Source: Anaerolineales bacterium
GTDB taxonomy: Bacteria > Chloroflexota > Anaerolineae > Anaerolineales > UBA11579
Length of the DNA: 64,000 nt
Direction of reading: 5' to 3'
Assembly (NCBI GenBank): GCA_025808555.1
Contig: CP075526.1
Coordinates: 696,712 to 760,711 of the forward strand
A program made the position numbers and the translations under genes. How positions within the stretch are numbered: position 1 is the first letter of the stretch; every line of letters starts with the position of its first letter. The notes under the pieces are model-generated. The model had not been told where the DNA came from. It was given only the letters and a program-made list of their open reading frames with translations, and ran no database searches. Positions 11,054 through 62,128 of the stretch are shown piece after piece.

Positions 11054-12954
11054 CAGTGTGTTTCCTTTCCATTCTTTACGGCAAGAGTGTCTTTTTCCAT
11101 TTCAAGCAAGCTGCGCGCCACACTCTCGATGGCGACGCGCTGCTTGCGATACAGATCAGCTTCAGACATGGTCAGGCGCATGGCTACCTCGCGCACCTTG
11201 CGGCCCTGCATGAACTTCATTTCGAGCAGGTTGTAGAGCATCCACTCACCGTTGAGGCGGGGTTCACCTTCGGGTTTGTTGCGCTCAATGGCGGTCTTCA
11301 GAATCGAGCGCACCGCCAACGACGGGTTGCCCTCGTGCTGCTCCAGCGCGCTTTGCACCACCTGCAGGCCGCGCAGCGGGCTCTGGGTCAGCTTGGGGCC
11401 GCCCCAGTAATGCGTAAGCGCATCCCGCACCCACTTGACCAGGTCTTTGTACTTGGGCAGTGCCTCAACATCACTGAGCACTTCACCCTGGTCGTAGCGC
11501 GAGGCAGCGCGTAAACGCTGAATGACCTCAACCCGCGGGGTAAGGCTTTGCAGCGAGCGCAGCACATCGCCCTGCTGGCGGCGGTCTTCCAGCGCCTGGG
11601 CCGCACGCGCCCCCAGGCTCTCCAGGGCGCGCAATTGCTCTTCGCTCAGCTCGCCCTTGCGGCCGCGCTGCACGCCCAGCATGCCGATGAGCGGCCCGCC
11701 CTCGCGGCTGTGCAGCGGCAGCAGGCGGTACCCGCTCCAGGTGAAGACCTGCGAGCCATTCTGCTTGCCGGCTACTTTGAGCAGGTCTTTGGATTTGTCG
11801 CTATCGCGCAAGTTACGCGAGCCGACCTCGACCACGGTTTGCATCTGGCCGTCCTGCAAACCAACGACGAAGGCTGATTTGCTCTGGAAGCGGTCGCACA
11901 CCGCGGCCAGCACGGCTTCAAGAAATTGGCGCATATCTGCATCGGTCAGGAAGCGCTCAGGCAGCTCCTGTAGGAACTGCATATCGTCTTCGCTGGCGCC
12001 GAAGATGAGCCACTTTTCCAACACCGGCGCGGCCAGGGTGAGCATGTGCGAAACCAGCAGGGTGGAAAGGCCCACCAGGATGGGCAGCACGACCCCATCC
12101 TGAATTTGCAGAATGCGGCCAATATCATCCGTCCAGGGGATGAGCGCCAGCACGATGAACACGGTGACCGGGCCGCGCAGCAGCCAGCGGAACAGGCGGC
12201 TCTTGACCACGCGGTCCGGCCAGGGCACGCCAAAAAAGGCGGTGGCATACGCCATGGCGACCATGGCGTAGAACACGAACACGTTGGCGATCGACGCGGT
12301 AAGGAAGAAGATGATCGGCACCGCTGCAGCCAGCTCGCCCGCCAGCAGCAGGAAGGGATAGCTGCCCACCGCCACGGCGATCGAGCCGACCAGCAGATAG
12401 GTCATGCGCCGGCGGCTGGCGGTGAGCACGGTGCGCTTCCAGGCCCGGTAAATGACCGAAAGGGCCATCAGCATAGTGACGACGTAATAGACGCTGAAGC
12501 CCAGCGACAGCGGCGTGAGCGTAAGGTGCGGCACGGGTTGGGCATCCGCCACCAGCGGGCCGAGGAACAGCGTGGTGGGTAGCAGCAGCGAGAAGGCCGC
12601 CGATACAAAGTACGAGAAGCGCACCGCCCAGCGGCGGCGGCCGCGCGAGGGGCGGCCAGTCGTCTCCAGCAGGGCATCCGAAAAGTGCAGGTAGGCGGCG
12701 GGCAGGAACAGCGTGCCCATCCACTGCAGGCGCAGCCACACCTCCAGGCTGGTCGATTGGCTCAGCACGCCGGCCACCGCCTCGCCCAGAAAGCTGACCA
12801 TGACACAGGCCAGGATGACGGCAAAGGCCCGCGAAATACGGTCACGCAAATTAAATGTCAGGGCGCGCAGAAACAGCGACAACGCCGTGATGGCGATGCC
12901 GGCTTCAAATATTCGGTTGATGGTTTGCAAACTTCTCAGAACCCAATCGTCCAT
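11053..12954 (-). CDS. polytopic membrane sensor-like protein with C-terminal sigma-70 region-4-like HTH
   Basis: About 300 aa of TM helices are followed by a soluble middle domain. The C-terminus is YWGGPKLTQSPL...WMLYNLLEMKFMQGRKVREVAMRLTMSEADLYRKQRVAIESVARSL. Confidence 0.6.
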   Translation of the reverse strand: MDDWVLRSLQTINRIFEAGIAITALSLFLRALTFNLRDRISRAFAVILACVMVSFLGEAVAGVLSQSTSLEVWLRLQWMGTLFLPAAYLHFSDALLETTGRPSRGRRRWAVRFSYFVSAAFSLLLPTTLFLGPLVADAQPVPHLTLTPLSLGFSVYYVVTMLMALSVIYRAWKRTVLTASRRRMTYLLVGSIAVAVGSYPFLLLAGELAAAVPIIFFLTASIANVFVFYAMVAMAYATAFFGVPWPDRVVKSRLFRWLLRGPVTVFIVLALIPWTDDIGRILQIQDGVVLPILVGLSTLLVSHMLTLAAPVLEKWLIFGASEDDMQFLQELPERFLTDADMRQFLEAVLAAVCDRFQSKSAFVVGLQDGQMQTVVEVGSRNLRDSDKSKDLLKVAGKQNGSQVFTWSGYRLLPLHSREGGPLIGMLGVQRGRKGELSEEQLRALESLGARAAQALEDRRQQGDVLRSLQSLTPRVEVIQRLRAASRYDQGEVLSDVEALPKYKDLVKWVRDALTHYWGGPKLTQSPLRGLQVVQSALEQHEGNPSLAVRSILKTAIERNKPEGEPRLNGEWMLYNLLEMKFMQGRKVREVAMRLTMSEADLYRKQRVAIESVARSLLEMEKDTLAVKNGKETH

Positions 12955-27984: not shown

Positions 27985-28452
27985 TCATCTGGCTTCACGC
28001 TTCATCACCATAATGCGCTCATCTACCCGTTCAAATTCAGCGATCATGGCGGGCATCTGCGTCAGGCGGCGAAAATACTTCGGTAAATGCTCTCCCGCCA
28101 CTTCAATAAAGCCAAATTTCTCGTAGAGGGGCTTGAGGGCGGAGATGCTCATAAGGTACAGCTCGCTCGTGTGCTGAGCGAGCAGGCTTTCGATGATGGC
28201 ACGGCCGACGCCGCGGCCCTGCCAGGCTGGTACTACCGCGATGGAGGCCAGCTCCCAAGTGCCGTCTTTGTGTTGTTTGATCTGGCCGCAGCCAATAAAT
28301 TCGCCGACGGGCGTGAGGGCGACATGGAAGTTTTGCCAGTCAAGCCCATGCTGGAAAAGGTCGGCTTGCTCGATAAGCTGGCGGATGGGAGCAGCGTGCT
28401 GCGGCCCGGCGGGCTGGATGCTGAATTCGGGTAGCGCGGTGAGGTTATCCAC
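27985..28452 (-). CDS. GNAT family N-acetyltransferase
   Basis: IAVVPAWQGRGVGRAIIESLL. Confidence 0.85.
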   Translation of the reverse strand: MDNLTALPEFSIQPAGPQHAAPIRQLIEQADLFQHGLDWQNFHVALTPVGEFIGCGQIKQHKDGTWELASIAVVPAWQGRGVGRAIIESLLAQHTSELYLMSISALKPLYEKFGFIEVAGEHLPKYFRRLTQMPAMIAEFERVDERIMVMKREAR

Positions 28453-29902
28453 GCAACAGTTCGTTGAGGATGCGGGCAGCGGCTTTGGGGTCGGCCTTGC
28501 CTTTGGTGCGCTGCATCAGCTGGCCCACAAACCAGCCCATCAGCGCTTCTTTGCCGGCGCGGAAGCTGGCGACGTTATCAGGGTTGGCGGCGATGATGTC
28601 TTCGGCGATCTTGCGCAGCTCGGTCTCATCGGAGACCTGGGCGAGGCCCTCGGCCTGGACGATGTCGGCAGGCGGCTGACCGCTGGCCTGCACCTTGGCG
28701 AGCAGGCTCTTGCCGGTGGGCGTGTTTACGGCGCCGGAGTCCATCAGTTTGAGCACTTCGGCGAAGTACTCCGGCGTGAGCTTGAGTTGGTCAGCGGTTT
28801 GGCCGCTCTCGTTGAGCATGGCCATGACATCGTTCATCAGCCAGTTGGAGACGCGCTTGATGTCGCCCCCGTAAGCGGCCGCGGCCGCCTCGAAATAGTC
28901 GGCCAGGGCGCGTTCACTGCTGAGAATGTCAGCGTCATACTCGGGCAGGCCGACCTGCTCGATGAAGCGCTGGCGGCGGGCGAGCGGCAGCTCGGGCAGG
29001 CCGTTGATGATCTCGGCGCGGCGCTCGTCGCTGAGCACCAGCGGCAACAGGTCTGGCTCGCGGAAGTAGCGGTAATCGGCCTCGGTCTCCTTGGAGCGCA
29101 TTTTGCTGAGCGTGCCGGTGTTCTCGTCCCAGGCCAGGGTCCAGGGCTGGATGGTGCCGCCGGCCTCGACCTCGCGGGTTTGGCGTTCGATCTCGGCCAG
29201 GATGGCGCTGCGCAGCGAGTCGATCGAGTTGACGTTCTTGATCTCGGTCTTGGTGTTGAGCTCGGTGCTGCCTACGGGGCGAATGGAGACGTTGGCATCG
29301 GCGCGCAGGTGACCCTTCTCCATGTCGGCTTCGGAGATGCCCAGCCAGCGCAACAGCTGGCGCAGGCGGATGAGGTATTGGGCGGCCTCGTCGGCCGAGC
29401 GCAGGTCCGGCCCGGTGACCATCTCGACCAGCGGCACGCCGCAGCGATTGAAGTCAATGAGGCGGGCGCCATCGGCGCGGTTCACGGTCTTGCCGGCATC
29501 CTCCTCCAGGTGGAGCTTGTGGATGCCTATTCGACGTGTCCCGTTGGGCGTGGGCAGATCCATGTGGCCGCCGTTGGCCAGCGGCATGTCGTATTGCGAG
29601 ATCTGGTAACCCTTGGGCAGGTCTGGGTAGAAGTAGTTTTTGCGGTCAAAGTGGGAGACGGGCTGCAGCTCGGCGCCCATGGCCGCCGCCAGCGTGGCGG
29701 CTTTCTGCACGGCATTCTCGTTGAGCACCGGCAGCACCCCGGGCAGGCCGCTGCACACGGGGCAGATGTTGGTGTTGGGCGCATCGTCCCAGGAGTCGGC
29801 TCTGCAGGAGCAGAAGATCTTGCTCTGGGTGTTGAGCTGGATGTGGGTCTCGAGACCGATGACGACTTCGTACGCAGCTGTGCCGCGTGTTTCGTTAGGC
29901 AT
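28445..29902 (-). CDS. gatB: Asp-tRNA(Asn)/Glu-tRNA(Gln) amidotransferase subunit B
   Basis: YEVVIGLETHIQLNT, NICPVCSGLPGVLPVLN, and the C-terminal YqeY-like tail. Confidence 0.95.
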   Translation of the reverse strand: MPNETRGTAAYEVVIGLETHIQLNTQSKIFCSCRADSWDDAPNTNICPVCSGLPGVLPVLNENAVQKAATLAAAMGAELQPVSHFDRKNYFYPDLPKGYQISQYDMPLANGGHMDLPTPNGTRRIGIHKLHLEEDAGKTVNRADGARLIDFNRCGVPLVEMVTGPDLRSADEAAQYLIRLRQLLRWLGISEADMEKGHLRADANVSIRPVGSTELNTKTEIKNVNSIDSLRSAILAEIERQTREVEAGGTIQPWTLAWDENTGTLSKMRSKETEADYRYFREPDLLPLVLSDERRAEIINGLPELPLARRQRFIEQVGLPEYDADILSSERALADYFEAAAAAYGGDIKRVSNWLMNDVMAMLNESGQTADQLKLTPEYFAEVLKLMDSGAVNTPTGKSLLAKVQASGQPPADIVQAEGLAQVSDETELRKIAEDIIAANPDNVASFRAGKEALMGWFVGQLMQRTKGKADPKAAARILNELLRG

Positions 29903-30176
29903 GGGGGGATTTTACCAACGTCAGGTTCATGAACTTAGCGAGCGTGAGGATTGCGGTTCAATAACCGGTTCAACGGAGGATTGCTTGCAGTGTGCTGCCG
30001 GCCTGCAGGTTATTGTACGCTCTACCGCAGGACTGCCCATGTGACTACCCACCTGGGTGCCAATTGAGTTTATACTTAACATGGCTTGATGGGGCCTGTG
30101 CCAAAACTCCACAACTGCATTGCAGTGCAACCGCCGGTCTGCTGGCACAAACGACAATCAAGAGGAACGTAAAACG

Positions 30177-32378
30177 ATGAAAAGTTCTCTGAATTCCAGC
30201 TGGAGACTAATTGTTGCTTTGACGCTAGTAGTCGTTTTGGCGCCGTTCCCCACACGACAGGCGAAAGCTGCCGGCGTTTCGCCGGCTAGCTATCTTGCAG
30301 AGGACGGCAGCCTGATGCTGCCAGCCGACTTCAGCGGCGCGCTGGATCTGACGGGCTGGGACGTGGGTCTGGATAGCCAGCGAGGCCTGGTGTTTCAACC
30401 CGCCGCGGCAATTGACGGCGCATGGAGCGCCCTAAACGATGTGGGTACAGGCTTGAACGGCAGCGGCAACACGATCGCGCTGGATGGCGGCACGGTGTAT
30501 GTGGGCGGCTTTTTTACCGATGCAGCAGGTGACCCGGATGCGGATAACATCGTCAAGTTAGAAGGCGGCGCCTGGACCACGCTGGGTGGGGCTAACACAG
30601 GGTTGAACCAGGGTGTCCGGGTGGTTGTGATCGATGGGGGTGTGATCTATGCCGGCGGCACCTTCACGGATGCCGGGGGTGATCCGGATGCGGATAACAT
30701 CGCCAAGTTTGAAAGCGGTGCATGGTCCTCTTTAGGCGGCGCCGGTACGGGTTTGAATTCGGGTGTATTAAGCATCACAATCGATGGCGGCATTATCTAT
30801 GCTGGAGGCAATTTCACGAACGCCGGCGGCGATCCAGACGCCGATCGGATCGCGCAATTCAGCGGCGGCAGTTGGTCTTCGCTGGGTGGGGCAAACAGCG
30901 ACCTGAACAACAGGGTAGAAGTAATCGAAGTTCACGGAGGGATTATTTACGCCGGCGGCGCCTTCCTGAATGCGGGGCTAGACCCTGATGCCAATTTCAT
31001 TGCCAAATTTGAAAGCGGCGCCTGGTCCTCGCTGGGAGGTGCCGGCACCGGCCTATCCGGCCCTGTTCTTGATCTTGTCATTTCCGGCGCGGTGATCTAT
31101 GCCGCCGGCGATTTTGTAAATGCCGGCGGGGATGCGGATGCCGATTACATTGCCAAGTTTGAGAGCGGCGCATGGTCATCCCTGGGCGGTTCGGGCAGCG
31201 GTCTCCCGGGGTATGTGGAGGTGCTGCTGATCTCCGGCGGGATTATTTACGTGGGCGGGGATTTCGACAACGCGGGCGGAGACCCAAATGCTGATCGAAT
31301 TGCCAAGTTTAGCGATGGCGCCTGGTCCTCCCTGAATGGGGCTAACACAGGTTTGAGTGACATTGTTAACGATATGGTGATCGTGGACAACGTACTGTAC
31401 GCCGTCGGCTCCTTTGAAAACGCCGGTGGCGATGCGGATACGGATTACGCGGCTCAATTTGGTCTGGTGTTTAGTAAACCCCAAACCACGACCCAACAGA
31501 TTTCAAGAGTAGAGATTGCTACCTCAGGTACCACTACGCTGGAGCTGGGTGATATTTCAGTTAGCCTGCCGGCTGAAGCCGTGACTGGTCTAGGCTCTTG
31601 TAGCTTGAGCATTCAAGACCTTGGCAATTCCGGCGATTTTGGATTTACTCTGAACGATAGCGTTTGGGATGTAGATATCACTTGTGACGGGGCAAACCAG
31701 CATATCTTCCTTGCGCCGATAACAATTTGTATTCGTCCCGAAGGAAGCACGGACGATAAAAAGATCTTCCATCGCGGGGATGCTGGCGGTTCCTGGGATC
31801 CGCTGGCGACGCTTAGCAGCTCCAGCGGCATGATCTGTGCCCACACGCGCACCCTCTCATTGTTTACATTAGGAAGTTTTAGTCTGCCGAATACTGGGTT
31901 TGCGCCTAATGTGGCAGCTGAACTGAACCCGAAAGCGGCGTATGCATCAACTGGATTACATCTCAGCATCCCCAAGCTTGGCCTGGCGACTGACATCGTC
32001 GGCGTTCCACAGGGCATCAATGGGTGGGATGTTAGCTGGCTGGGCGAGAGCGCCGGCTTCCTGCACGGCACTGCTTTCCCGACCCTTGCGGGAAACACGG
32101 TTATCACTGCTCATGTATGGGGCGCGGACAATCAGCCTGGCCCGTTTGCAGGATTGCATGGCTTACGGTACGGCGACCATATTAGTATCAATGCCTGGGG
32201 CCAAACATACACCTATGAGGTACGGACCAACACCAGCTACAGCCCCAGCAGCCTTAGCCCGCTGGCCACAACCGATCATGATTGGGTGACATTGATCACT
32301 TGCCAAGGTTTTGATGAAGTCAGCGGCGAATACCTGTTTAGACGGGTTGTGAGGGCGGTGCTAATCAGCATCGATTAG
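30177..32378 (+). CDS. secreted 7x50-aa repeat (propeller-like) protein with internal LPNTG and C-terminal sortase domain
   Basis: GAGGA SD lies before ATG 30177. Signal peptide is MKSSLNSSWRLIVALTLVVVLAPFPTRQAKA. Seven repeats run from 30420 to 31469. LPNTG is at 31884-31898. The sortase triad context is NTVITAH (His codon 32112-32114), TLITC (Cys codon 32301-32303) and RRVVRA. Confidence 0.8.
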   Translation: MKSSLNSSWRLIVALTLVVVLAPFPTRQAKAAGVSPASYLAEDGSLMLPADFSGALDLTGWDVGLDSQRGLVFQPAAAIDGAWSALNDVGTGLNGSGNTIALDGGTVYVGGFFTDAAGDPDADNIVKLEGGAWTTLGGANTGLNQGVRVVVIDGGVIYAGGTFTDAGGDPDADNIAKFESGAWSSLGGAGTGLNSGVLSITIDGGIIYAGGNFTNAGGDPDADRIAQFSGGSWSSLGGANSDLNNRVEVIEVHGGIIYAGGAFLNAGLDPDANFIAKFESGAWSSLGGAGTGLSGPVLDLVISGAVIYAAGDFVNAGGDADADYIAKFESGAWSSLGGSGSGLPGYVEVLLISGGIIYVGGDFDNAGGDPNADRIAKFSDGAWSSLNGANTGLSDIVNDMVIVDNVLYAVGSFENAGGDADTDYAAQFGLVFSKPQTTTQQISRVEIATSGTTTLELGDISVSLPAEAVTGLGSCSLSIQDLGNSGDFGFTLNDSVWDVDITCDGANQHIFLAPITICIRPEGSTDDKKIFHRGDAGGSWDPLATLSSSSGMICAHTRTLSLFTLGSFSLPNTGFAPNVAAELNPKAAYASTGLHLSIPKLGLATDIVGVPQGINGWDVSWLGESAGFLHGTAFPTLAGNTVITAHVWGADNQPGPFAGLHGLRYGDHISINAWGQTYTYEVRTNTSYSPSSLSPLATTDHDWVTLITCQGFDEVSGEYLFRRVVRAVLISID
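30420..31469 (+). repeat. seven in-frame tandem 150-bp (50-aa) coding repeats
   Basis: The (A/S)W(S/T)(S/A/T)L motif recurs exactly every 50 residues (ORF residues 101, 151 ... 401). Consensus: AWSSLGGAGTGLN..V..I.I.GGIIYAGG.F.NAGGDPDAD.IAKFESG. Confidence 0.9.
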
Positions 32379-53242: not shown

Positions 53243-54547
53243 TTACTTCACAACGCCATAGGAATGACGCAAGCGCTTTACCTTCTTGGCAGACCACTTG
53301 TGGGCGGCCAGCACGCGTGTGCGCGCCGCGGCCAACGAGTCTTTTGAATTGGCGTGCAGCACGAACAGCGGCTCGCCCTTCTTCACGCGGTCGCCGACTT
53401 TGTGCAGCACCACAATGCCCACGGCAGGGTCGATCGTATCGCCCTTCTTGGCGCGCCCGGCGCCCATCTCCACTGAGGTCTCGCCCACGATCTGGGCATC
53501 GATCCATTTGATATACGCGCTCTTGGGCGCGGGCACTTCTTCAATGAAAGGCGCAGCCGGCAGCTTGTCTGGCTGGTCCACATAGCTCACATCGCCGCCC
53601 TGGGCGGCCACCAGCTTGCGGAAGCGCTCAAAAGCGCTGCCGTCTTGCAGCGTGGCCGCGGCTTTTTTGCGGGCGGCTTCCGGCGTGCTGGCCGCTTTGC
53701 CGAGCACCAGCAGGTGGCTGGCAATATCCAGGCAATGCTCGCAAAAATCCTGCGGCCCGCCGCCGTGCAGGGTTTCGATGGCTTCTTTGACCTCGAGGGC
53801 GTTGCCCACGGCGAAGCCGAGCGGCTGATTCATGTCGGAGAGCAGACACACCACTTTTCGATTGGCCAGCTTGCCAATCCGCACCATGATGGTCGCCAGC
53901 TTTTTGGCCGCAGGCAGCGTTTTCATGAACGCGCCAACGCCAACTTTCACATCCAGCACCATGCGCTGGGCGCCGGCGGCGATCTTCTTGCTCATGATCG
54001 ACGAAGCGATCAGCGCCAGCGAGTCGACCGTGCCGGTCACATCCCGCAGGGCGTACATCTTGCCGTCGGCGGGGGCCAGCTTGCCGGTTTGCCCGGTGAG
54101 CACCAGTCCCAGACCCTTGAGTTGGGCCAAAAACTCTTCCTTGCTGAGGTCGGTGCGGTAGCCCGGAATGGACTCCATCTTGTCCAGCGTGCCGCCGCTG
54201 AAACCAAGGCCGCGGCCAGACATTTTGCCCACCCGCAGCCCGCAGGCCGAGACGATCGGCTCGACCACCAGGGTAGTCTTGTCGCCCACCCCACCGGTGG
54301 AATGCTTGTCCAGGGCAATATCCACGACCTGGCTCAGGTCCAGCACCTCGCCCGAATTGGCCATGGCCAGGGTCAGATCGGTCACCTCGCGGTCACTCAT
54401 CCCGTTCAGCAGCACTGCCATGGCCCAGGCGCTGGCCTGGTAGTCAGTCACAGTGCCGTCCGTGAAACCACGTACAAAGAATTCGATCTCCTCGGTGGTC
54501 AGTTCCAGGCCATCACGCTTCTTTATGATCAGATCAACGGTTCGCAT
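53243..54547 (-). CDS. pdp: pyrimidine-nucleoside (thymidine) phosphorylase
   Basis: MRTVDLIIKKRDG..L..EEI.FFV.G...G...DYQASAWAMAV and DKHSTGGVGDKT. At 434 aa it has the canonical length. The track ORF extends 252 aa too far upstream. Confidence 0.92.
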   Translation of the reverse strand: MRTVDLIIKKRDGLELTTEEIEFFVRGFTDGTVTDYQASAWAMAVLLNGMSDREVTDLTLAMANSGEVLDLSQVVDIALDKHSTGGVGDKTTLVVEPIVSACGLRVGKMSGRGLGFSGGTLDKMESIPGYRTDLSKEEFLAQLKGLGLVLTGQTGKLAPADGKMYALRDVTGTVDSLALIASSIMSKKIAAGAQRMVLDVKVGVGAFMKTLPAAKKLATIMVRIGKLANRKVVCLLSDMNQPLGFAVGNALEVKEAIETLHGGGPQDFCEHCLDIASHLLVLGKAASTPEAARKKAAATLQDGSAFERFRKLVAAQGGDVSYVDQPDKLPAAPFIEEVPAPKSAYIKWIDAQIVGETSVEMGAGRAKKGDTIDPAVGIVVLHKVGDRVKKGEPLFVLHANSKDSLAAARTRVLAAHKWSAKKVKRLRHSYGVVK

Positions 54548-54673
54548 GTCACCTCGCCTGAAATTATACTGGCGGGTCTCATTAGTCCAAACGGCTGTTA
54601 AACCAGACTCAACATTCCCCCTGTCTTGCCCTACAATACTCTGGCAGCCAAAAGCTGGGCTGCCAGTCTGCTT

Positions 54674-57600
54674 ATGACGATTGTTCTCACTAAAGTGCGG
54701 GCCCCGCAGCGGCGCAAAGACGTTTTGCGCCGCGTGCGGCTGGTGGATACGCTGCACCAGAACCTGCACCGCAAACTGACCTTTGTTTCGGCCCCCGCCG
54801 GCTACGGCAAAACCACCCTGCTGGTGGATTTTGCCGCGGATGTGGACGCCCACGTATGCTGGTACCGCATCGGGCCTGAGGATGGCGACCTGGTGCAGTT
54901 CGCCCAGCACATCGTAGCGGCCTTCCAGCAGGAGTTCCCCGGCTTCGGCAAAGCGCTCGAAGAGCGTCTGAACACCCCCGGAGCGCGGCCAGACGCCCCC
55001 AGCATTGCCACCGAGATCATCAATGCTGTGCAGGAACAGGTGCCGGATTTCAGCGTACTGGTGCTGGACGATTACCACCTGGCGGGCGAGAACCAGCAGA
55101 TCGTCGATCTTCTCGAGAACCTGCTTGAGCATTTGCCAGACCATCTGCGCATCCTGATCGGCTCGCGCAGCGTATACGGCATCCCGGCCGCCAGCTTGTA
55201 TATCCGTGACGAACTGGTCACCATCAGCGCGGATGAGCTGCGCTTCCGCGCCGATGAGCTGCAAAAGCTGGTGCTGCAGAACTACCGCATGCGCCTCTCG
55301 CAAGAAGAAGCCGAAGAGCTGGCCAAGCGGGCCGATGGCTGGATCGTGGCCCTATTGCTGGCCGTGCGCGCCATGAGCACCGGCGGCCTGCCGCGCTTCC
55401 TGGGCAATACCGAGCAGATCTATACCTACCTGGCTGAAGAAGTGGTCAGCCAGCAAAGCGAGGACCTGCGCGAGTTCATGCTGGGCGCCTCGATCTTTAG
55501 CGACTTTGCAGAAGCCCAGTGCAATTATGTGATGCGGCGTGAAGACTCGGGTGATATGCTGCGCGCCCTCGAGGAGCGCAACCTGTTCGTCAGCCGCACC
55601 GAAACGCGTGAAGGCAGCAGCTATCGCTTTCACCAGCTGTTCTCAGAATTCCTGCAGGATTATTTTGCCCGCCATAACCCCGCCCTGCTGGGCAGCCTGC
55701 ACGCCCGCGCCGCCGATTGGCACTTCCAACGCCGGGAGTGGGAGAACGCCGTCCAGCACAAGTTCGCCTCAGGCGAAGTGCAGGCTGCCGCGGCGTGGAT
55801 GGATTCCGCCGCTGAACATTTCTACACCACTGGCCGCCAGGCCCTGCTGGCGCGCTGGCTGGAAGACCTAGATAAGACGCCCGGCCTGCGCCAGCACGCG
55901 CCGCGCCTGATCCTGTACCAGGCCAAGTCACTGGGCAACCAAAGCCAGTTTGAAGCATGCCTCAAGCTGCTGGCCCAGGCCGAACCGATCCTGAAACAGC
56001 GCGGCGACGCCGAGTTGCTGGCCAATGCCTTTATCACCCGCGGCATGGTGTATCGCTTTACCGGCAAGCCCAAAGACGCGATAGACCTGGCCGAATCCGC
56101 GCAGGAGCTGCTGGCCGGTGAACTCAAGAACAGCCTGCAGTGGTACCAGGCAGAACGTTTGCGCGGCGTAGCGCTGCATCTGCTAGGTAAAACCGAAACT
56201 GGAATCGAACACATCAACATGGCAGTAGCGGGCTTACGCCAGCTGGCCGAGAAGACCTCTGAAACCATGCGCCCGGTCTATCTCTTCGACCTGGCGGAAT
56301 GCCTCAATGACCTTGGACTGATCCATATCACCAGCGGGCAAATGCTCAGCGCCCAACAAGCCTTCGAGGAAGTGTTGGATATCCATGTCAGCATCCGAAG
56401 CAATCTGGGCGCCCTGGCTTCTGCTCGCAACAACATTGCCTACTTGCAACACCAGATCGGGCAACACCAGGCCTCATGGAAGCAGTACACCCAAGCACTT
56501 GCCTATGTGAAGGCCTCAGGCAGCGCGCGCGTACATATTGGCATCCTTAGCGGCCAGGGGGCTTTGTTGCTGGACGCAGGGGACCCGCTTGAAGCCCGGG
56601 TCTGCTTGCTGGCTGCGGTGGAAGTGGGTGAAGCCACAGGCGAGCTGCAGGAGCTGGTGCCAGTCTACGTAAGCATGGCGCGGGTCACCAGCGCCCTGGG
56701 CGACTACAACGAAGCCATGGCGTGGCTACGCAAAGCCGCCAGCCAGGCCGGCTCACGCTTCAGCCGCGCCGAGTATGCCCTGCACATGGGCTGGACCTAT
56801 GCCAATATGCAGCAGCACGACCTGGCGCTGCAGCAGCTTGAGCTCGCCATGCAGAACTGGGGCGAGCAACCCCAGCAGGACCAGGTAACCGCTGCCTTCC
56901 TGCGCGCCTGCATTCTGTACGCCCAGGGCGAGGAAGCCGAGGCCGACCCGTTGTTGGCCTTGGCGCTGGAGGGTGCAGCGCGGCTGGGCTATCAGCAATT
57001 CCTCATTCCGCTGGCGCGGGATTGGCAAAACGCTCTGGGGCGCGCCCAGGCCAAATCTCCATCGCCCCAACTGGCGGACATCCTGGAGCAAGCCAGCCGC
57101 CCCAATTTCACCCGCAGCATGCTCGAAGGGACAGAAGAGGGAGCCACGACAGAACCGCAGCAGCTGGAAGTGCATACGCTGGGCGGCTCTGAGATCCGCC
57201 GCAATGGCGAAGTGCTGCCGGTCACGATCTGGCGCTCCACACGCGCCCGCTCACTCTTCATTTACATACTGGATCGCGGCCGGGTACGCAAGGATGCGAT
57301 CGGCATCCACTTCTGGCCTGATTTCAGCCCCGGGAAGGTGAGCAGCAATTTCCACGCCACCCTGTGGCGCGTGCGCCAGGCGCTGGGCTTCAAAGACTCG
57401 ATCGTCTTTGAAGATGAGCACTACTCGCTGCACCCCAGCATCCAAACCTGGTATGACGCCGCAGAGTTCGAGAACTACATGCGCATGGCCACCACCGCCG
57501 GGCTGGAGGAAGCCGAGCCAGCTGAGCAAGCCGAGATGCTGCGCCAGGCGCTACGCTTGTACCGCGGGCCTTATTTGGAAGATGTATATATGGAGTGGGC

Positions 57601-57901
57601 CGACGAACGCCGCGAGGAGCTGCGCAGCCTGTACCTGGGCGGGTTGGAACTGCTGGGCGATATTGAGGTCAGGGCCAAACGCTTCCGTGAGGCTCGTGAG
57701 ATCTATGAGCGCATCGTAGCCAGCGACCCCTACCGTGATGAAGCCCATCTGGCCCTCATGAAGAGCATGGCCGATTCAGGGGCTACATCTGCTGCCATCC
57801 TGCACTACAAGGAATACCAGAAACTACTACGCAAGGAGCTGAACGCCGAGCCGATCGAGGCTCTGAAAACCTACTACCAGCAGCTGACCATTAGTGTCTA
57901 G
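54674..57901 (+). CDS. STAND-type regulator: MalT-like ATPase + TPR region + C-terminal SARP (wHTH + BTAD) module
   Basis: LTKVRAPQRRKDVLRRVRL and Walker A FVSAPAGYGKTTLL, with Walker B VLVLDDYH. A long helical-repeat middle follows. The C-terminus is LEVHTLGGSEIRRNGEVL...RSLFIYIL...ALRLYRGPYLEDVY..W....R..L...Y. Confidence 0.8.
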   Translation: MTIVLTKVRAPQRRKDVLRRVRLVDTLHQNLHRKLTFVSAPAGYGKTTLLVDFAADVDAHVCWYRIGPEDGDLVQFAQHIVAAFQQEFPGFGKALEERLNTPGARPDAPSIATEIINAVQEQVPDFSVLVLDDYHLAGENQQIVDLLENLLEHLPDHLRILIGSRSVYGIPAASLYIRDELVTISADELRFRADELQKLVLQNYRMRLSQEEAEELAKRADGWIVALLLAVRAMSTGGLPRFLGNTEQIYTYLAEEVVSQQSEDLREFMLGASIFSDFAEAQCNYVMRREDSGDMLRALEERNLFVSRTETREGSSYRFHQLFSEFLQDYFARHNPALLGSLHARAADWHFQRREWENAVQHKFASGEVQAAAAWMDSAAEHFYTTGRQALLARWLEDLDKTPGLRQHAPRLILYQAKSLGNQSQFEACLKLLAQAEPILKQRGDAELLANAFITRGMVYRFTGKPKDAIDLAESAQELLAGELKNSLQWYQAERLRGVALHLLGKTETGIEHINMAVAGLRQLAEKTSETMRPVYLFDLAECLNDLGLIHITSGQMLSAQQAFEEVLDIHVSIRSNLGALASARNNIAYLQHQIGQHQASWKQYTQALAYVKASGSARVHIGILSGQGALLLDAGDPLEARVCLLAAVEVGEATGELQELVPVYVSMARVTSALGDYNEAMAWLRKAASQAGSRFSRAEYALHMGWTYANMQQHDLALQQLELAMQNWGEQPQQDQVTAAFLRACILYAQGEEAEADPLLALALEGAARLGYQQFLIPLARDWQNALGRAQAKSPSPQLADILEQASRPNFTRSMLEGTEEGATTEPQQLEVHTLGGSEIRRNGEVLPVTIWRSTRARSLFIYILDRGRVRKDAIGIHFWPDFSPGKVSSNFHATLWRVRQALGFKDSIVFEDEHYSLHPSIQTWYDAAEFENYMRMATTAGLEEAEPAEQAEMLRQALRLYRGPYLEDVYMEWADERREELRSLYLGGLELLGDIEVRAKRFREAREIYERIVASDPYRDEAHLALMKSMADSGATSAAILHYKEYQKLLRKELNAEPIEALKTYYQQLTISV

Positions 57902-57994
57902 GCAAGGAAATTGCATCTTACAAGCAAGAAATTACGGGAAAAGCTACTCGATTTGGGTGGCTTTTTTTGACCCATGCTCATAGCTGCGTTCATA

Positions 57995-58016
57995 GGCCGC
58001 TTTATACAATGCGGCC
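57995..58016. promoter_or_regulatory. palindrome GGCCGC-N10-GCGGCC spanning a TACAAT box upstream of the repeat-peptide gene
   Basis: GGCCGCtttatacaatGCGGCC. TACAAT is at 58005-58010, about 40 nt before ATG 58051, in an unusually AT-rich spacer. Confidence 0.35.
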
Positions 58017-58050
58017 AATCTAATCAAAAAGAAATAGGAGATTTACAAAC

Positions 58051-58248
58051 ATGACCAAGAAATTTGCTTTCGCTCATCCCGTCGGCGGTGGTATCGGCAC
58101 CGCCCCCCAAAGCAACCATCCTGTTGGCGGCGGCATCGGCACTGGCCCCGGCCTGTCCCACCACCCCGTCGGCGGCGGTATCGGCACCGCTCCCCAAGGC
58201 AACCATCCTGTTGGCGGCGGCATCGGCACTGGCCCCACCACTCTGTAA
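58051..58248 (+). CDS. 65-aa repeat peptide, 4 x HPVGGGIGT(A/G)P units, unknown family
   Basis: AGGAG at 58036-58040 lies 10 nt before the ATG. It is on the same strand as its neighbours, has GC-rich third positions, and the substitutions between repeat cores are mostly synonymous. Confidence 0.6.
   Translation: MTKKFAFAHPVGGGIGTAPQSNHPVGGGIGTGPGLSHHPVGGGIGTAPQGNHPVGGGIGTGPTTL
58075..58245 (+). repeat. A-B-A'-B' tandem coding repeat (42/45/42/42 nt)
   Basis: Units are at 58075-58116, 58117-58161, 58162-58203 and 58204-58245. B and B' share an identical 33-nt run, CATCCTGTTGGCGGCGGCATCGGCACTGGCCCC. Confidence 0.9.
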
Positions 58249-58299
58249 ATTTGTAACCACCTTAATCGAACTAACAGTACTCGCCTTAGGAGACCTACA

Positions 58300-58515
58300 A
58301 TGTCCAAGCTGAAACTGAACGCTATCGCAACTCTCGCTTTGGTAGACCAGGATTTCAAAGCTGCTGTTCTGAGCGGCCGTCTGCAGGAAAAGTTGGGCGC
58401 CTTCCAGCTGAACGAGGAAGAAATGCGCGCCATCACGGCCATCCAGGCGATGGATCTGGACCAGTTCATGCGCCGCCTCGGCTCGCTGATCCAGACCTCG
58501 GCGGCTGTACACTAA
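58300..58515 (+). CDS. 71-aa helical protein resembling NHLP/Nif11-type leader-like proteins
   Basis: AGGAG at 58288-58292 lies 7 nt before the ATG. LNAIATLALVDQDFKAAVLSGRLQEKLGAFQLNEEEMRAITAIQAMDLDQFMRRL fits my recollection of the NHLP-clan pattern, which I have not verified. Confidence 0.6.
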   Translation: MSKLKLNAIATLALVDQDFKAAVLSGRLQEKLGAFQLNEEEMRAITAIQAMDLDQFMRRLGSLIQTSAAVH

Positions 58516-58609
58516 GAAGCTCTAGCATTACTTTGGGATAGCTGCCCTACTCCCGGCAGCAAGCACCGTTCCCTTAACATGACGCATGCCCGCAAGATGA
58601 GCAGCGCTT

Positions 58610-61600
58610 ATGGGTATTGAGACAATGCTGCTGGCTTCCTTCAAAGACTCACCCTCGCGTCAAAACGCTCCGGACGCGGATTCTTTGCGCAACCTGAGCA
58701 AGGTCAAAGCGCTGGTTGAGCACAGCGCCGACGCGGTCCTCATCCTGCATCCGGAGAGCGGCAAGATCCTGGTAGCCAACCAGAGCGCCCTGCTGCTGTT
58801 CGAGGCCGACGAGGGAGCGCTGTACGGGCTCACCTTCAACCAATTGAGCGCAACCAAGAACGCGCCCAAAACCTCGCCGTTGGACCGCTATGCGGATTAT
58901 GTGCAGCGCGTACGGGCCGGCGAATCCCCAGAGTTTGAATGGCAGGGGCGCACTCCCAGCGGCAAGCAGATCTCCGGCAAGGCGCAGATGTCAACTTTGC
59001 CTGTAAAGGATGCGGAGTTCATCCGTATTCATATTTCGCACCCCGAAGTCGAAGCCGCCAGCTGGGTTGAGGACAGCCAGCATGTTGATGAGCTGGCAGC
59101 CCTGGCACTGACTGGCGCCAGCATTGCCTCCAGCCTGGATATTGACAAAGTGATGGAAGTGGTCGGCAAGCAGCTGGCCACCCTGCTCGAGGCCAACACC
59201 TTCATAGCCTACGACTGGCTGGCCAACAGCAAAGACCTGCGCATGCGCCATAGTTACACTATGGCACGCAGCCAGCCGAAACCGGTTGCGCCCCATTTGG
59301 ATGTCAGCAACGTGCTGGAGTTGGGCCGCCCGGTGCAAAAACAGATCGACGCCAGCACCACTACGGCCGCTGAAAAGAAGGCCATGAAGTCTGCCGGGGC
59401 GACGACCGTGCTTATATTGCCACTCATTGCGCAGAGCAAGACCATCGGCCTGGCCGAATTGCAAGACAAGCGCGAGGGCCACACCTTCAGCAGCCGCGAG
59501 ATCTATTTGGCGCAGACCCTGTGCCACCAGGCCGCCGTCGCCATTGAAAATGCCCGTCTGTTCCAGGCCACTCGCCGCCAGCTGCAGGAGTTGACCATTT
59601 TGCAGCAAGTGGCCAACGCCACCACCGAGGCCAACAGCGTGGACGAGCTGATCGAGAGCGCCACCCAGTTGATCCGCCACAGCATTTACTCGGATAACTT
59701 CGGCATCATTCTATTGGGTGAAGACGGGCAACTGCACATTCATCCCTCCTACGAATCGGCCCCCGAGGTTGCCAGTAAGCCCATCCCGCTGGGCCAGGGC
59801 GTCACCGGCCGCGTAGCCCAGTCCGGCAAACCCATGCGCATCGCCGACACGCGCCAGGAAGCCAATTACCTGGACTACGACCAGCAAACCCTTTCCGAGC
59901 TGTGCGTGCCGATGAAGATCGGCGAGCGTGTAATTGGCATCATCAACACGGAAAGCCGCGAGCTCAACCACTTCACCGAAGACGACGAGCGCCTGCTGCT
60001 CACGCTGGCCGGCCAGCTGGCCACCGGCATCGAGCGCCTGCGCAACGCAGCCGCCGAAGGCCGCCGCACGCATCAACTGGCAGTTCTCAATGAGCTCACC
60101 AGCCGCATGAGCGGCGTGCTGGAGCGCGACAAACTGTTCCAGATCATTGTCGAGTGCCTGCACCGCCGCATGGGCTACTACTCCACCGACATCTCCCGCG
60201 TGGATGATGACACCCAGTCCTACATCGTGGAGGCTGTGGCCGGCGGCTTTGAACTCGTGGCCGAGCGCCAGGGCTACACCCAGCCTTTCGGGCTGGGCCT
60301 GCTGGGGTTGGCTGCCCGCACAGGCGAAATAGTTCACACCAACAATGCCAGCGCCCATCCGAACTTCTTCATGGTGGAAGGCTTTGCCAGGATCCAATCA
60401 GAGATTGTCATCCCGATCAAGATCTACAACAAGGTGTATGCCTTGCTGAACATTGAAAGCCAGCAAGCCAACGCGTTTGACGATTACGAGATCGCCGCCC
60501 TATCCACGCTGGGGGATCAGATCTCCATGTTCCTGGAGAGCGTGCATCTGTTCGAGTCGACCAAGCGCCAGCTTCAGGAGCTCACCGTGCTGCACGCCAT
60601 CACCCAGGCGGCGGTTAATGCCCGCACCCAGGATGAGCTGATCGAGCGCGCCACCGAGATCATCGGCGCCAGCTTGTATACAGACAAATTTGGCTTCCTC
60701 ACCATGCACCCGGATGGCGATAAGCTGATCGTACATCCATCCTATAGAGGTATCACTCCGCAGGATCTGTCTCGAATGGTGACGCTGTCCGAAGGCGTGA
60801 CCGGCCGCGTGGCGGCCACCGGCAAAGCCTGGCGTGTGCCGGATGTGCGCAAGGAGCCCAGCTACATGCGCATCAACCCCAACATGCGCTCTGAGCTGTG
60901 CGTGCCCATCCTCGGCAACGGCAACCGCGTGCTGGGCGTGATCAACGCCGAGAGCATACGCGTGAACGCGTTCACCGACTCGGACCTGCGCCTGCTCAGC
61001 ACGATCGCCGGCCAGATCGGCACGGCCATTGAGAAGCTGCACTTGTTGCAATCCGAGCGCTTCCAGCGCAGCCAGGCCGAGACCCTGCGCGAGGTGGCCG
61101 CCATCCTGGGCTCCGCCGCAGACCGGGCCAGCGTGCTGGATCTGATCCTCGAGCAGCTCAAGCGCGTCGTGCCGTTCGACAGCGCGTCAGTTCAGCTGGT
61201 GCGCGGTGAAAACCTGATCGTGCACGCGGTGGCGGGCAACTTGGAGTCGGCCGTGGTCGGCCTCGAACTGCCGATCAAAGAAGACAAATTCGCCCACCCG
61301 TTGCTGTTCGAACAGCGCACCGTGCTATATGAAGACATCAGTGACCACCCCGACTGGCTGCAGCTGGAAGGCGCCAGCAATGTGAAATCATGGATCGGTG
61401 CACCGCTGATCGCCCGCGGCGCCTGCATTGGTGTGCTGACCGTGGACGGATACACCGCAAAGCAGTTCTCGCAGGCCGATGCCGACCTGGTGGCCACTTT
61501 CGCCATCCACGCCGGCATTGCGTTGGAGAATGTACGCCTGTTTGAAGAAGCGCAGGACGCCTATCTGCAAACCGTCAGCGCCCTGGCCAGCGCCATTGAC

Positions 61601-62128
61601 GTGCGTGACACCTATACCAGCGGCCACAGCCAGCGCCTGGTGGATATGGCCGTGGAAACCGGCCGCCTGCTGGGCTGCACTCCACAGGAGCTGGTTGACA
61701 TCAAATGGGGCGCCCTGCTGCATGACATTGGAAAGATCGGCGTGCCGGATGAGATCCTGCGAAAGCCCAGCTCACTGGAACAAGCTGAACTAGAAGTGAT
61801 GCGCCAGCACCCTGAGATCGGCGCCCGCATTGTGGAGCCGGTGCGCAACCTGGCCACCGTGGCCCCCATCATCCGTGCCCACCAGGAACGCTATGACGGC
61901 TCGGGCTACCCTGACGGGCTCAAGGGTGATCAGATCCCCAAGATCGCCCGCATCATCAGCGTGGCCGACGCCTATGTGGCCATGACTGACGAGCGTGTGT
62001 ACCGCAAAGCGCGTTCGAAGGAAGAAGCCATCGCCGAGCTTAAGCGCTGCAGCGGTACGCAATTCGACCCGCTGGTGGTTGAGGCGTTCCTGCAGGTGCT
62101 TGACACCTGCAACGGCGACGAAACCTAG
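58610..62128 (+). CDS. PAS + multi-GAF (about five) + HD-GYP domain protein (putative c-di-GMP phosphodiesterase)
   Basis: N-terminal PAS (VEHSADAVLILHPESGKILVANQSA). Repeated GAF blocks each have GVTGRVA..GK..R..D and SELCVP. The C-terminus has HSQRL..., HDIGKIGVPDEIL and HQERYDGSGYPDGL. Confidence 0.85.
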   Translation: MGIETMLLASFKDSPSRQNAPDADSLRNLSKVKALVEHSADAVLILHPESGKILVANQSALLLFEADEGALYGLTFNQLSATKNAPKTSPLDRYADYVQRVRAGESPEFEWQGRTPSGKQISGKAQMSTLPVKDAEFIRIHISHPEVEAASWVEDSQHVDELAALALTGASIASSLDIDKVMEVVGKQLATLLEANTFIAYDWLANSKDLRMRHSYTMARSQPKPVAPHLDVSNVLELGRPVQKQIDASTTTAAEKKAMKSAGATTVLILPLIAQSKTIGLAELQDKREGHTFSSREIYLAQTLCHQAAVAIENARLFQATRRQLQELTILQQVANATTEANSVDELIESATQLIRHSIYSDNFGIILLGEDGQLHIHPSYESAPEVASKPIPLGQGVTGRVAQSGKPMRIADTRQEANYLDYDQQTLSELCVPMKIGERVIGIINTESRELNHFTEDDERLLLTLAGQLATGIERLRNAAAEGRRTHQLAVLNELTSRMSGVLERDKLFQIIVECLHRRMGYYSTDISRVDDDTQSYIVEAVAGGFELVAERQGYTQPFGLGLLGLAARTGEIVHTNNASAHPNFFMVEGFARIQSEIVIPIKIYNKVYALLNIESQQANAFDDYEIAALSTLGDQISMFLESVHLFESTKRQLQELTVLHAITQAAVNARTQDELIERATEIIGASLYTDKFGFLTMHPDGDKLIVHPSYRGITPQDLSRMVTLSEGVTGRVAATGKAWRVPDVRKEPSYMRINPNMRSELCVPILGNGNRVLGVINAESIRVNAFTDSDLRLLSTIAGQIGTAIEKLHLLQSERFQRSQAETLREVAAILGSAADRASVLDLILEQLKRVVPFDSASVQLVRGENLIVHAVAGNLESAVVGLELPIKEDKFAHPLLFEQRTVLYEDISDHPDWLQLEGASNVKSWIGAPLIARGACIGVLTVDGYTAKQFSQADADLVATFAIHAGIALENVRLFEEAQDAYLQTVSALASAIDVRDTYTSGHSQRLVDMAVETGRLLGCTPQELVDIKWGALLHDIGKIGVPDEILRKPSSLEQAELEVMRQHPEIGARIVEPVRNLATVAPIIRAHQERYDGSGYPDGLKGDQIPKIARIISVADAYVAMTDERVYRKARSKEEAIAELKRCSGTQFDPLVVEAFLQVLDTCNGDET

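Follow-up and report, generated by a model that had tools for sequence, protein, structure and literature searches.

What is encoded, and to what end, by a short open reading frame (ORF) in which one glycine-rich unit is repeated four times? The question is raised by a 64,000-nucleotide (nt) stretch of the genome of an Anaerolineales bacterium from the phylum Chloroflexota (assembly GCA_025808555.1, contig CP075526.1, positions 696,712–760,711 of the forward strand), called the window throughout, which carries such an ORF at 58051..58248 on its + strand. Comparison with relatives indicates that this ORF is genuinely protein-coding and that strong purifying selection maintains it. Its product is one of a family of small tandem-unit peptides, previously unrecognised, for which neither Pfam nor NCBIfam has a model and whose genes usually go uncalled. 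Conservation across a clade of uncultured Anaerolineales shows that the gene is strictly linked to two neighbours, which encode a 71-amino-acid (aa) protein, p71, and a large regulator. We classify as new the small-peptide family itself and its combination with an NHLP-type partner and a STAND/SARP regulator.

Read from the sequence and the ORF list, the 65-aa product consists of the head MTKKFAFA followed by HPVGGGIGTAPQSN / HPVGGGIGTGPGLSH / HPVGGGIGTAPQGN / HPVGGGIGTGPTTL, units of 14–15 aa that we label A, B, A' and B'. A first-pass annotation of the window, made from the letters alone, had described an 8-aa head, four units and AGGAG 10 nt before the ATG, all of which we confirm in the sequence. 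No hydrophobic segment or signal peptide was found in the peptide, which had no match in Pfam or NCBIfam; its AlphaFold2 model has a predicted local distance difference test score (pLDDT) of 42 and no confident structure. The intact peptide has a mass of about 6.0 kDa, FAFAHPVGGGIGTAPQSNHPVGGGIGTGPGLSHHPVGGGIGTAPQGNHPVGGGIGTGPTTL is the tryptic peptide expected from the ORF and QSNHPVGGGIGTAP is an example of one unit. Literature searches on the motif strings, Franean1_4349 and related keywords found no paper on this peptide. At the DNA level, Tandem Repeats Finder reported two periods across 58075–58236, one of 42 nt (3.8 copies, 72% matches) and one of 87 nt (1.8 copies, 95%); the latter, which covers two units, is the younger. 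A degenerate DNA pattern for P-x-G-G-G-[I/V]-G occurred four times in the window, each time within this ORF, where shuffles predicted 0.07. Between units A and B, 6 of 33 nt differ, 5 of these changes being synonymous, exactly as first counted. The earlier tally of four differences between A and A', three of them synonymous, holds in number; however, the three differences in the 11-codon core are all synonymous, and the non-synonymous one (AGC/GGC, S/G), which had been placed in the core, lies in the linker. Units B and B' have an identical 33-nt core.

As the peptide is nearly invisible to protein database searches, we anchored the family on the neighbouring ORF p71 and fetched 20 genomic loci around it. 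A + strand ORF of tandem Gly-rich units was found directly 5' of p71 in nearly all of them. The + frame was open in 19 of 19 loci, each of which also had GGAG or GGAGG 5' of the ATG. Across the 73 units from these 19 loci, the proline and four glycines are invariant, yet all four proline codons and all four glycine codons occur. When unit pairs inside one locus were compared over the seven-codon core, the proportion of synonymous differences (pS) was 0.48 and that of non-synonymous differences (pN) 0.004 (48% vs 0.4% of sites). Between loci, the ratio of non-synonymous to synonymous substitution rates (dN/dS) was 0.05–0.2, and an AT-rich relative (L022) retains five units, written in GGT-rich codons. 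The first-pass proposal that the repeat is conserved as peptide and not as DNA is thus borne out by invariant residues with varied codons, and the peptide gene is among the most strongly constrained sequences of its neighbourhood.

Could the repeat instead be a DNA-level tandem array, or the shadow of a true frame on the opposite strand (ORFs 58074..58469 or 58024..58512)? Long antisense ORFs do exist in the window, and across 17 loci pN/pS was 0.34 in the shifted antisense frame as well as in the peptide frame, against 1.4–2.2 in the other four frames. The substitution pattern is the same in both frames and therefore cannot alone separate them, a caveat that the annotation had rightly raised; stop codons can. 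In each of the 19 loci the shifted antisense frame is interrupted by 1–7 stops; p71, which both antisense ORFs overlap, is conserved as a + strand protein, and the ribosome-binding site and ATG are kept on the + strand. We rejected the antisense ORFs on the grounds of these stop codons and this overlap. A metagenome contig (L108) that encodes a real-looking secreted protein with GPMPPPTGK repeats opposite a PVGGGIG frame lends the alternative some colour, but it has neither the regulator nor p71. The first-pass annotation had named loss of the plus frame in relatives, with the antisense frame preserved, as the sign that would speak against a peptide. Relatives instead keep the + frame with its ribosome-binding site and vary in unit number, and it is the antisense frame that is broken. 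We conclude that, as far as sequence comparison goes, the coding status of the ORF is settled, and the chance that it is not a gene is exceedingly small.

The motif match in L108 (2695–2988, +) is the antisense of that secreted protein, which has a signal peptide and then five SIYMGPMPPPTGK repeats. These share PMPPPTG with what the shifted antisense frame of the window would encode. The protein is probably an unrelated Pro-rich repeat protein.

About 30 distinct relatives were found in Anaerolineales genomes and metagenomes, each with the + frame, a GGAG(G) site and 1–5 units, usually four. The core consensus is [H/Y/Q]-P-x-G-G-G-[I/V]-G-[T/G/S], within a full unit of the form [small/polar]-[H/Y/Q]-P-x-G-G-G-[I/V]-G-[T/G/S]-[G]-[P]-x-x that recurs with a period of 14 aa (13–15); in the cassette family a short polar head of 7–11 aa precedes the units. 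Position x is V, I, M, L, C, T or R depending on the lineage, and the linkers are PQAN, PSFA, PLFN or VQFE. Before the proline, the 73 units have H (29), Q (23), Y (13), G (4) or R (4), and Q, Y, G or R is fixed in whole lineages. These lineage-specific residues (x, pre-Pro and linker) are common to the units of one peptide, while their nucleotides differ by 6–35%, mostly at synonymous sites. Such a pattern points to one constraint shared by all units, which is what equivalent action would produce; gene conversion may contribute to their identity. Five units are present in L011, L022 and L055, three in L010, L024 and L094, two in several short database proteins and a single one in an L010 copy of 26 aa. 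The final unit often breaks off directly behind the core (...GGGIGG, ...GGGIGH, ...GGGIGTDH).

The composition of the units bears on the idea of a metal-binding peptide of the PrP octarepeat type, in which a His and a Gly3 backbone would hold the metal. The motif P-x-G-G-G-hydrophobic-G does resemble P-H-G-G-G-W-G-Q, but in form only: His precedes the proline in just 29 of the 73 units and is not, as in PrP, the anchor of every repeat. Whole lineages have Q, Y, G or R at this position, no other metal ligand is conserved and Cys is sporadic. We rejected metal binding because His is not conserved, so the Cu-binding analogy with PHGGGWGQ drawn in the first-pass annotation does not carry over, and we find this explanation scarcely credible. 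A resemblance to the FtsZ/tubulin signature, GGGTG[ST]G, was also dropped, as the Thr position of the signature is I or V in 72 of the 73 units.

An exact look-up of ten relatives in a collection of 15 billion proteins returned none of them (0/10), which indicates that gene callers mostly miss the family, and a profile search gave ten database proteins only. A database search with the 65-aa peptide itself gave one match, P0001 (36 aa, 2 units), whose source, Logan contig L001, is 99.6% identical to window 55741–58312. Its 2-unit form stems either from a genuine contraction by 87 nt or from collapse during assembly over the identical 33-nt core of B and B', and P0001 is uninformative on evolution. 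Independently of p71, we scanned metagenomes for two motif copies 42 nt apart and obtained 120 matches, about 14 of which are true family members; most of the 120 were discarded as unrelated Gly-rich or out-of-frame sequences. Among the ten profile matches is a separate subfamily, P0046–P0049 (L027 640–927, L028 158–433), which has 91–95 aa with a conserved 36-aa N-terminal extension and carries four HP[VM]GGG[IV]GS units with acidic linkers; it occurs in another genomic context, with neither p71 nor the regulator nearby. In L027 the palindrome GCATCCAT...ATGGATGC extends across the start codon, and no obvious ribosome-binding site is visible.

The surroundings of the gene are as constant as its frame (Table 1). 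In every locus with enough flank, the order is thymidine phosphorylase (-), regulator (+), peptide (+), p71 (+), PAS-GAFx5-HD-GYP protein (+), QueA (-) and RuvB (-). Among the roughly 14 metagenome members found independently of p71, all those with enough flank have the regulator 5' and p71 3'. The regulator matches BTAD (5.4e-22), TPR_12 and AAA_22/16 in Pfam, and MalT (1.3e-74, residues 20–503) and AfsR SARP (residues 834–1086) in NCBIfam. The HD-GYP protein matches GAF_2 (2.4e-78, in 5 stretches) and HD_5 (1.2e-37) in Pfam, and a NosR-family cyclic di-GMP (c-di-GMP) phosphodiesterase in NCBIfam (2.3e-47). The peptide and p71 are tandemly duplicated as one cassette in L010, L016, L029 and L104. 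L010 (3183–4216) has three p71 copies with 1-unit and 3-unit peptides between them. In L016 (3750–4806) and L029 (4514–5474), the first peptide copy is decayed and the intact second copy has P-L-S-G-G-I-G-G units.

Table 1. Coordinates of the features discussed (window positions unless a locus is named).
Feature	Position	Strand	Description
Regulator gene	54626..57901	+	1091 aa; MalT-like AAA+/STAND N-terminus, TPR repeats, C-terminal SARP module (winged helix + BTAD)
Intrinsic-terminator-like hairpin and U-run	57935..57969	+	Would close the regulator transcript; 15-bp stem, -17.7 kcal/mol, z = -6.05
Direct repeat GCTCATAGC / GTTCATAGG	57976..57996	+	TCATAG at 57978–57983 and 57990–57995; 12-nt period
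-10-like hexamer TACAAT	58005..58010	+	9 nt after the second repeat; TAnAAT conserved in the alignment
Shine-Dalgarno AGGAG of the peptide gene	58036..58040	+	10 nt 5' of the ATG; read from the sequence
Repeat-peptide gene	58051..58248	+	65 aa; start ATG 58051, stop TAA 58248; 8-aa head, then four units with core H-P-V-G-G-G-I-G-T
Spacer between peptide and p71	58249..58299	+	51 nt, unstructured; p71 Shine-Dalgarno AGGAG at 58288–58292; fold z = 0.17
p71 gene	58300..58515	+	71-aa all-helical protein; obligate partner of the peptide; weakly NHLP/Os1348/Frankia_peptide (LigA-like)
Weak hairpin GCTGCC...GGCAGC	58541..58560	+	After p71; z = -1.66
PAS-GAFx5-HD-GYP gene	58610..62128	+	1172 aa; putative c-di-GMP phosphodiesterase; last gene of the same-strand block
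Distant small ORFs	L150 611–757; L151 1–147; L154 375–575; L153 67–195; L152 2–169		5' of p71-like genes

Pfam scans took in 42 large ORFs of the window (at least 200 aa), which showed housekeeping functions only, apart from a few without a Pfam match and an unlinked sortase-domain gene. The latter is a 752-aa ORF (30120–32378, +) with a C-terminal sortase domain that follows a 579-aa ORF (28193–29932) without a Pfam match; it lies 26 kb from the peptide, and nothing points to a link. The 686-aa ORF listed at 53243–55303 (-) is over-extended: only its C-terminal ~438 aa (53243–54559) match thymidine/pyrimidine-nucleoside phosphorylase, and the remainder overlaps the regulator gene on the opposite strand. 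A 633-aa ORF (11053–12954, -) has weak, below-cut-off Pfam matches to a histidine-kinase N-terminal 7TM region and a partial GAF domain, and may be another sensory protein.

How might the peptide be expressed? Both arms of the hairpin behind the regulator are conserved, as GCTAC/GTGGC in some loci and GCTGC/GCAGC in others, and some of the changes are compensatory; a simple terminator scan did not detect this hairpin. In a 17-locus alignment, the most conserved non-coding stretch (window 57975–58010) reads TGCTCATAGCTnCGTTCATAGGG, about 7 nt and TAnAAT, and the layout TCATAG, 6 nt, TCATAG, 9 nt, TACAAT is conserved in the 17 loci. The exact repeat pattern occurs once in the window, against 0.09 expected in a search allowing one mismatch, and 13 of the 21 loci examined have it once each; the distant loci L150 and L154 retain the same repeat-box layout. 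A consensus sigma-70 scan found no -35/-10 pair at this putative promoter, which has no recognisable -35. With a transcription start assumed some 7 nt beyond the -10 box, the repeats would lie at about -41 to -21.

In the afs box recognised by AfsR, two 11-bp direct repeats extend from -40 to -19 and lie over a poor -35 element (PMC10936776). Our candidate promoter resembles it in having two direct repeats that lie over a missing or poor -35 and end just 5' of the -10 box, with a SARP-domain regulator encoded next to it. It differs in its 12-nt rather than 11-nt period and its 9-nt gap to the -10 box, and the regulator differs from AfsR in carrying the SARP module C-terminal to the NTPase/TPR part, not N-terminal. 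Characterised SARP boxes lie about 8 nt from the -10 box. The direct repeats, the poor -35, the -10 box and the nearby SARP activator expected of a SARP promoter are all present, apart from the 12-nt period. The TCATAG repeats are presumed to be the binding site of a SARP-type activator, and we infer an activator-dependent promoter, served by the neighbouring regulator.

At the 5' end of an operon, a Gly- and Pro-rich ORF (21 Gly and 8 Pro codons of 65) might also act through its translation alone, as a regulatory upstream ORF that senses Gly-tRNA, EF-P or ribosome stalling and sets the expression of p71 and the HD-GYP gene, the peptide being functionless. A nascent-chain effect would conserve amino acids too. 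However, the spacer to p71, which is 29–56 nt long in the relatives, is unconserved except for the ribosome-binding site, carries no terminator or terminator/antiterminator pair and is unstructured in the window (z = 0.17). Such a spacer argues for co-transcription of the peptide and p71 and against an attenuator, and attenuation was rejected on this basis. p71 has its own strong ribosome-binding site, and neither identical lineage-specific linkers in all units nor the co-duplication of peptide and p71 would be expected of a sensor ORF. We therefore regard this alternative as very improbable.

Further downstream, other clades have a hairpin stronger than that of the window (CCTTAGGGTGAGGGTAAG...GCCCTCAC...CTTAAGG), which is conserved 60–100 nt after the p71 stop and before the HD-GYP gene (L012 800–850 and homologous positions in L008, L014, L015, L017–L020, L025, L080 and L094). 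The L012 version folds at -24.5 kcal/mol (z = -5.8). The element lacks a U-run, matches nothing in Rfam and shows little covariation; it might bind a protein, or serve to stabilise or process the mRNA. An Rfam search of the region and five related loci gave nothing meaningful.

The nature of the peptide's partner is a second clue. p71 has 44 homologues (61–99% identity) in Anaerolineales metagenome-assembled genomes, and its AlphaFold2 model comprises five helices (pLDDT 80). It matches NF038399 (Os1348 family, NHLP clan) at E = 0.0018, with 18.3 bits against a cut-off of 40, and PF14407 (Frankia_peptide) at E = 0.059, with 14.1 bits against a cut-off of 48. All 25 p71 members tested match NF038399, in every case at E = 1e-5 or weaker and below the cut-off. 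The top PDB sequence match of the p71 profile is 6lk7, the solved Os1348 structure, and is weak (E = 0.2); a Foldseek search of the p71 model against the PDB listed nothing with E <3, and 6lk7 was not listed. Os1348 is a presumed modified small protein from a Pseudomonas cluster with GNAT, HEXXH and SagB-type genes (PMC7726476). In ECOD, Frankia_peptide, Nif11, ComX and nitrile-hydratase alpha are LigA-like domains typical of the precursors of peptides that are ribosomally synthesised and then post-translationally modified (RiPPs; PMC12353581).

With the NHLP, Nif11, Os1348 and Frankia_peptide proteins, p71 shares its small all-helical build (70–90 aa) and, in the 6lk7 alignment, the segment ...L-[SN]-x-E-E-[LMV]-x-A-[VI]-x-S-I...; with NHLP-type leader domains it shares the variable C-terminal tails of its wider relatives. 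It departs from the NF038399 and PF14407 families in scoring below their curated cut-offs, and from leader-type domains in having no GG cleavage motif and a tail of only 6–8 aa. Unlike in the Os1348 cluster OS3 (PMC7726476, its Table 1), no GNAT, HEXXH-peptidase or SagB-type neighbours are present in the window. An exhaustive profile search yielded 116 representative clusters, of which the sequences of 60 were read. These wider relatives have a conserved ~65-aa domain with variable, indeed hypervariable, C-terminal tails, the tails and the Gly repeats being mutually unrelated, and no fusion of p71 to Gly-rich repeats was seen among the 60. Searches of plasmid and phage collections with p71 gave no match. 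Taken together, p71 may be placed, weakly, as a distant relative of the NHLP/Os1348/LigA-like leader-domain clan. A p71-like domain also occurs in P0100 (205 aa), joined to a response-regulator receiver domain, and in P0134 (324 aa), joined to a C-terminal region of 250 aa, which hints that the domain can serve in signalling proteins and not in precursors alone.

Multi-copy peptide precursors include cyanobactin PatE, fungal repeated-core RiPP precursors and the yeast alpha-factor pro-peptide. By analogy, the gene would work most like such tandem-core precursors, under a promoter that looks SARP-dependent. In common with them, one small ORF holds several near-identical units joined by short linkers, the copy number varies and the peptide is kept while the DNA diverges. 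In contrast to them, it has an 8-aa head and no long leader or signal, its core is near-invariant and not hypervariable, and no processing protease or modifying enzyme is encoded nearby among the scanned ORFs.

This bears directly on a classical multi-core RiPP, such as an antibiotic, whose cores would be modified and excised by enzymes encoded elsewhere, with p71 as a trans leader-like element or a second precursor. Near-identical cores in tandem (four in the window, 1–5 in relatives), the weak placement of p71 in the NHLP/Os1348/Frankia_peptide leader clan (ECOD grouping, PMC12353581) and the usual precursor layout of its wider relatives, a conserved 65-aa domain with hypervariable tails, are what such a RiPP would show, and the adjacent regulator is of the SARP type, a class known from within antibiotic gene clusters (PMC10936776). 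But a RiPP leader typically has at least 20 aa, and the head here has only 7–11 aa across the family (8 in the window), which leaves no leader; only the P0046–49 subfamily has an extension, of 36 aa. No maturase was found in the scanned window ORFs or the syntenic block, and among the 42 ORFs there was no radical SAM protein, YcaO, lanthipeptide synthetase, ATP-grasp enzyme, prolyl peptidase or peptidase-ABC exporter; in all loci, thymidine phosphorylase and QueA border the block. The core hardly varies over a clade of family rank and housekeeping genes enclose the locus, which is inherited vertically; hypervariable mobile clusters behave otherwise. The absence of p71 from the plasmid and phage collections and of p71–Gly-repeat fusions from the 60 representatives speaks against it as well. 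A textbook RiPP cluster, with co-localised enzymes, is not supported, and the dispersed version remains improbable in our view. Of the first-pass suggestion of an unrecognised repeat peptide, possibly a multi-core RiPP precursor, the repeat peptide stands; for a RiPP precursor speak the tandem identical units and the NHLP-like neighbour, and against it the missing leader and the fact that no maturase, protease or exporter was found among the scanned window ORFs or in the conserved block.

Peptide genes paired with TPR regulators offer another comparison, known from the RRNPP-type pairs PlcR–PapR and AimR–AimP. As in these, a small peptide gene lies immediately 3' of a TPR-containing transcription factor. 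Unlike in these, the regulator (1091 aa) combines a STAND ATPase with a SARP module and is not a helix-turn-helix–TPR protein without an NTPase, the window peptide has four units and no export signal, p71 is always added and the host phylum is Chloroflexota.

The likeness to RRNPP peptides extends to a hydrophobic N-terminal segment and a short conserved C-terminal end only in distant relatives. We inspected four distant p71-like loci (L150/L151, L152, L153 and L154), each of which has a small ORF 5' of the p71-like gene. The two adjoin in three of them; in L153 a gene for a DUF5317 membrane protein intervenes. These small ORFs encode a polar N-terminus, an 18–22-residue hydrophobic signal- or anchor-like segment with an AxA-like site, and one or two C-terminal Gly-rich units (...VLA-SPSHGGTGG; ...ALA-GFADGGIGSMRITPAGFADGGMGS; ...AAG-APMGYGGS; ...THA-CGLVGGGCNG). 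In L150 and L154 the BTAD regulator is likewise retained, as is the 12-nt direct repeat with a -10 box behind it. As a lead, this suggests an older module with an exported or membrane-anchored short Gly-rich peptide, from which the Anaerolineales clade would have lost the hydrophobic segment while multiplying the unit.

What, then, would the peptide do? In the model that we favour, the regulator transcript would end at its own terminator, and a peptide–p71 operon would start at the promoter without a -35 box, where the TCATAG direct-repeat pair, at the position of a SARP box, would recruit the neighbouring regulator. The peptide would be the regulated output of that regulator and, less securely, each unit would be an equivalent, independently acting module. 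Cleaved where units meet, or recognised one unit at a time, a pro-peptide would supply several copies of one short Gly-rich peptide. p71 could be the carrier or partner of the peptide. The role would most plausibly be signalling between or within filaments, through the TPR/STAND regulator and/or the GAF sensor protein; an antibiotic from a local biosynthetic cluster is less likely. The multi-copy pro-peptide is proposed because the units are identical, their copy number varies, the last unit is truncated, no fold is predicted and relatives are of an export type. That the units are equivalent modules of such a pro-peptide is quite possible but, in our judgement, still short of probable.

Several observations weigh against this model. 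Neither the conserved block nor the scanned ORFs contain a protease, exporter, import system or modifying enzyme, and export of the window peptide, which has no signal peptide, would need an unlinked route. Unit identity within a lineage can also be explained by gene conversion and purifying selection, with no release of units. The region is syntenic with housekeeping genes, so linkage could in part reflect vertical inheritance and not function, and one lineage (L016, L021, L029) has a decayed peptide copy. The 12-nt period of the direct repeats and their 9-nt gap to the -10 box depart from characterised SARP boxes, which have an 11-nt period. Finally, the likeness between the distant signal-bearing ORFs and one unit covers a short stretch of low complexity.

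STAND regulators act by oligomerisation, and the peptide might work on such a process without being cut at all. As an unprocessed multivalent disordered protein, the intact 65-aa peptide would remain in the cytoplasm, each unit would bind p71, the TPR sensor or a GAF domain, and multivalent binding would either seed oligomerisation or prevent it, in a feedback loop that acts on the peptide's own promoter. This would explain why window and block scans reveal no signal peptide, protease or exporter and hence no gene for export or processing. It also accords with the lack of a confident predicted fold, the strict linkage to p71 and the TPR/STAND regulator, and the lineage-specific residues common to all units, as if co-evolving with one binding site. 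A unit number of 1–5, including the 26-aa single-unit copy, is nevertheless a poor fit to a fixed valency, and distant relatives have export- or anchor-like segments. We take this explanation seriously while considering it unlikely, and less so than any of the other rivals to the multi-copy pro-peptide.

That pro-peptide could also be one element of a Chloroflexota peptide-signalling circuit of an undescribed type. The leaderless four-unit pro-peptide would be the ligand of the adjacent MalT-like STAND/TPR regulator, whose SARP module would activate the peptide promoter in positive feedback; p71 would be an NHLP-type leader domain turned free-standing partner, carrying the peptide or antagonising it; and the multi-GAF HD-GYP enzyme would couple the switch to the c-di-GMP turnover of these filamentous bacteria. 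Related lineages would have signal-peptide-bearing single-unit versions. Taken as a whole, this elaborate scheme is distinctly doubtful.

Small genes of this kind are routinely missed by annotation, and Chloroflexota are abundant in wastewater plants and sediments with almost no genetics. The new family, with its clear motif, fixed partner p71, candidate regulator and candidate operator, is a testable module. Units that are identical as peptide but have scrambled synonymous sites offer a signature by which further hidden genes for multi-copy peptides can be searched for. Should the units prove to be released or sensed, peptide-based regulation and NHLP-type domains outside biosynthetic clusters would be extended to Chloroflexota, and such regulation would be linked to c-di-GMP control.

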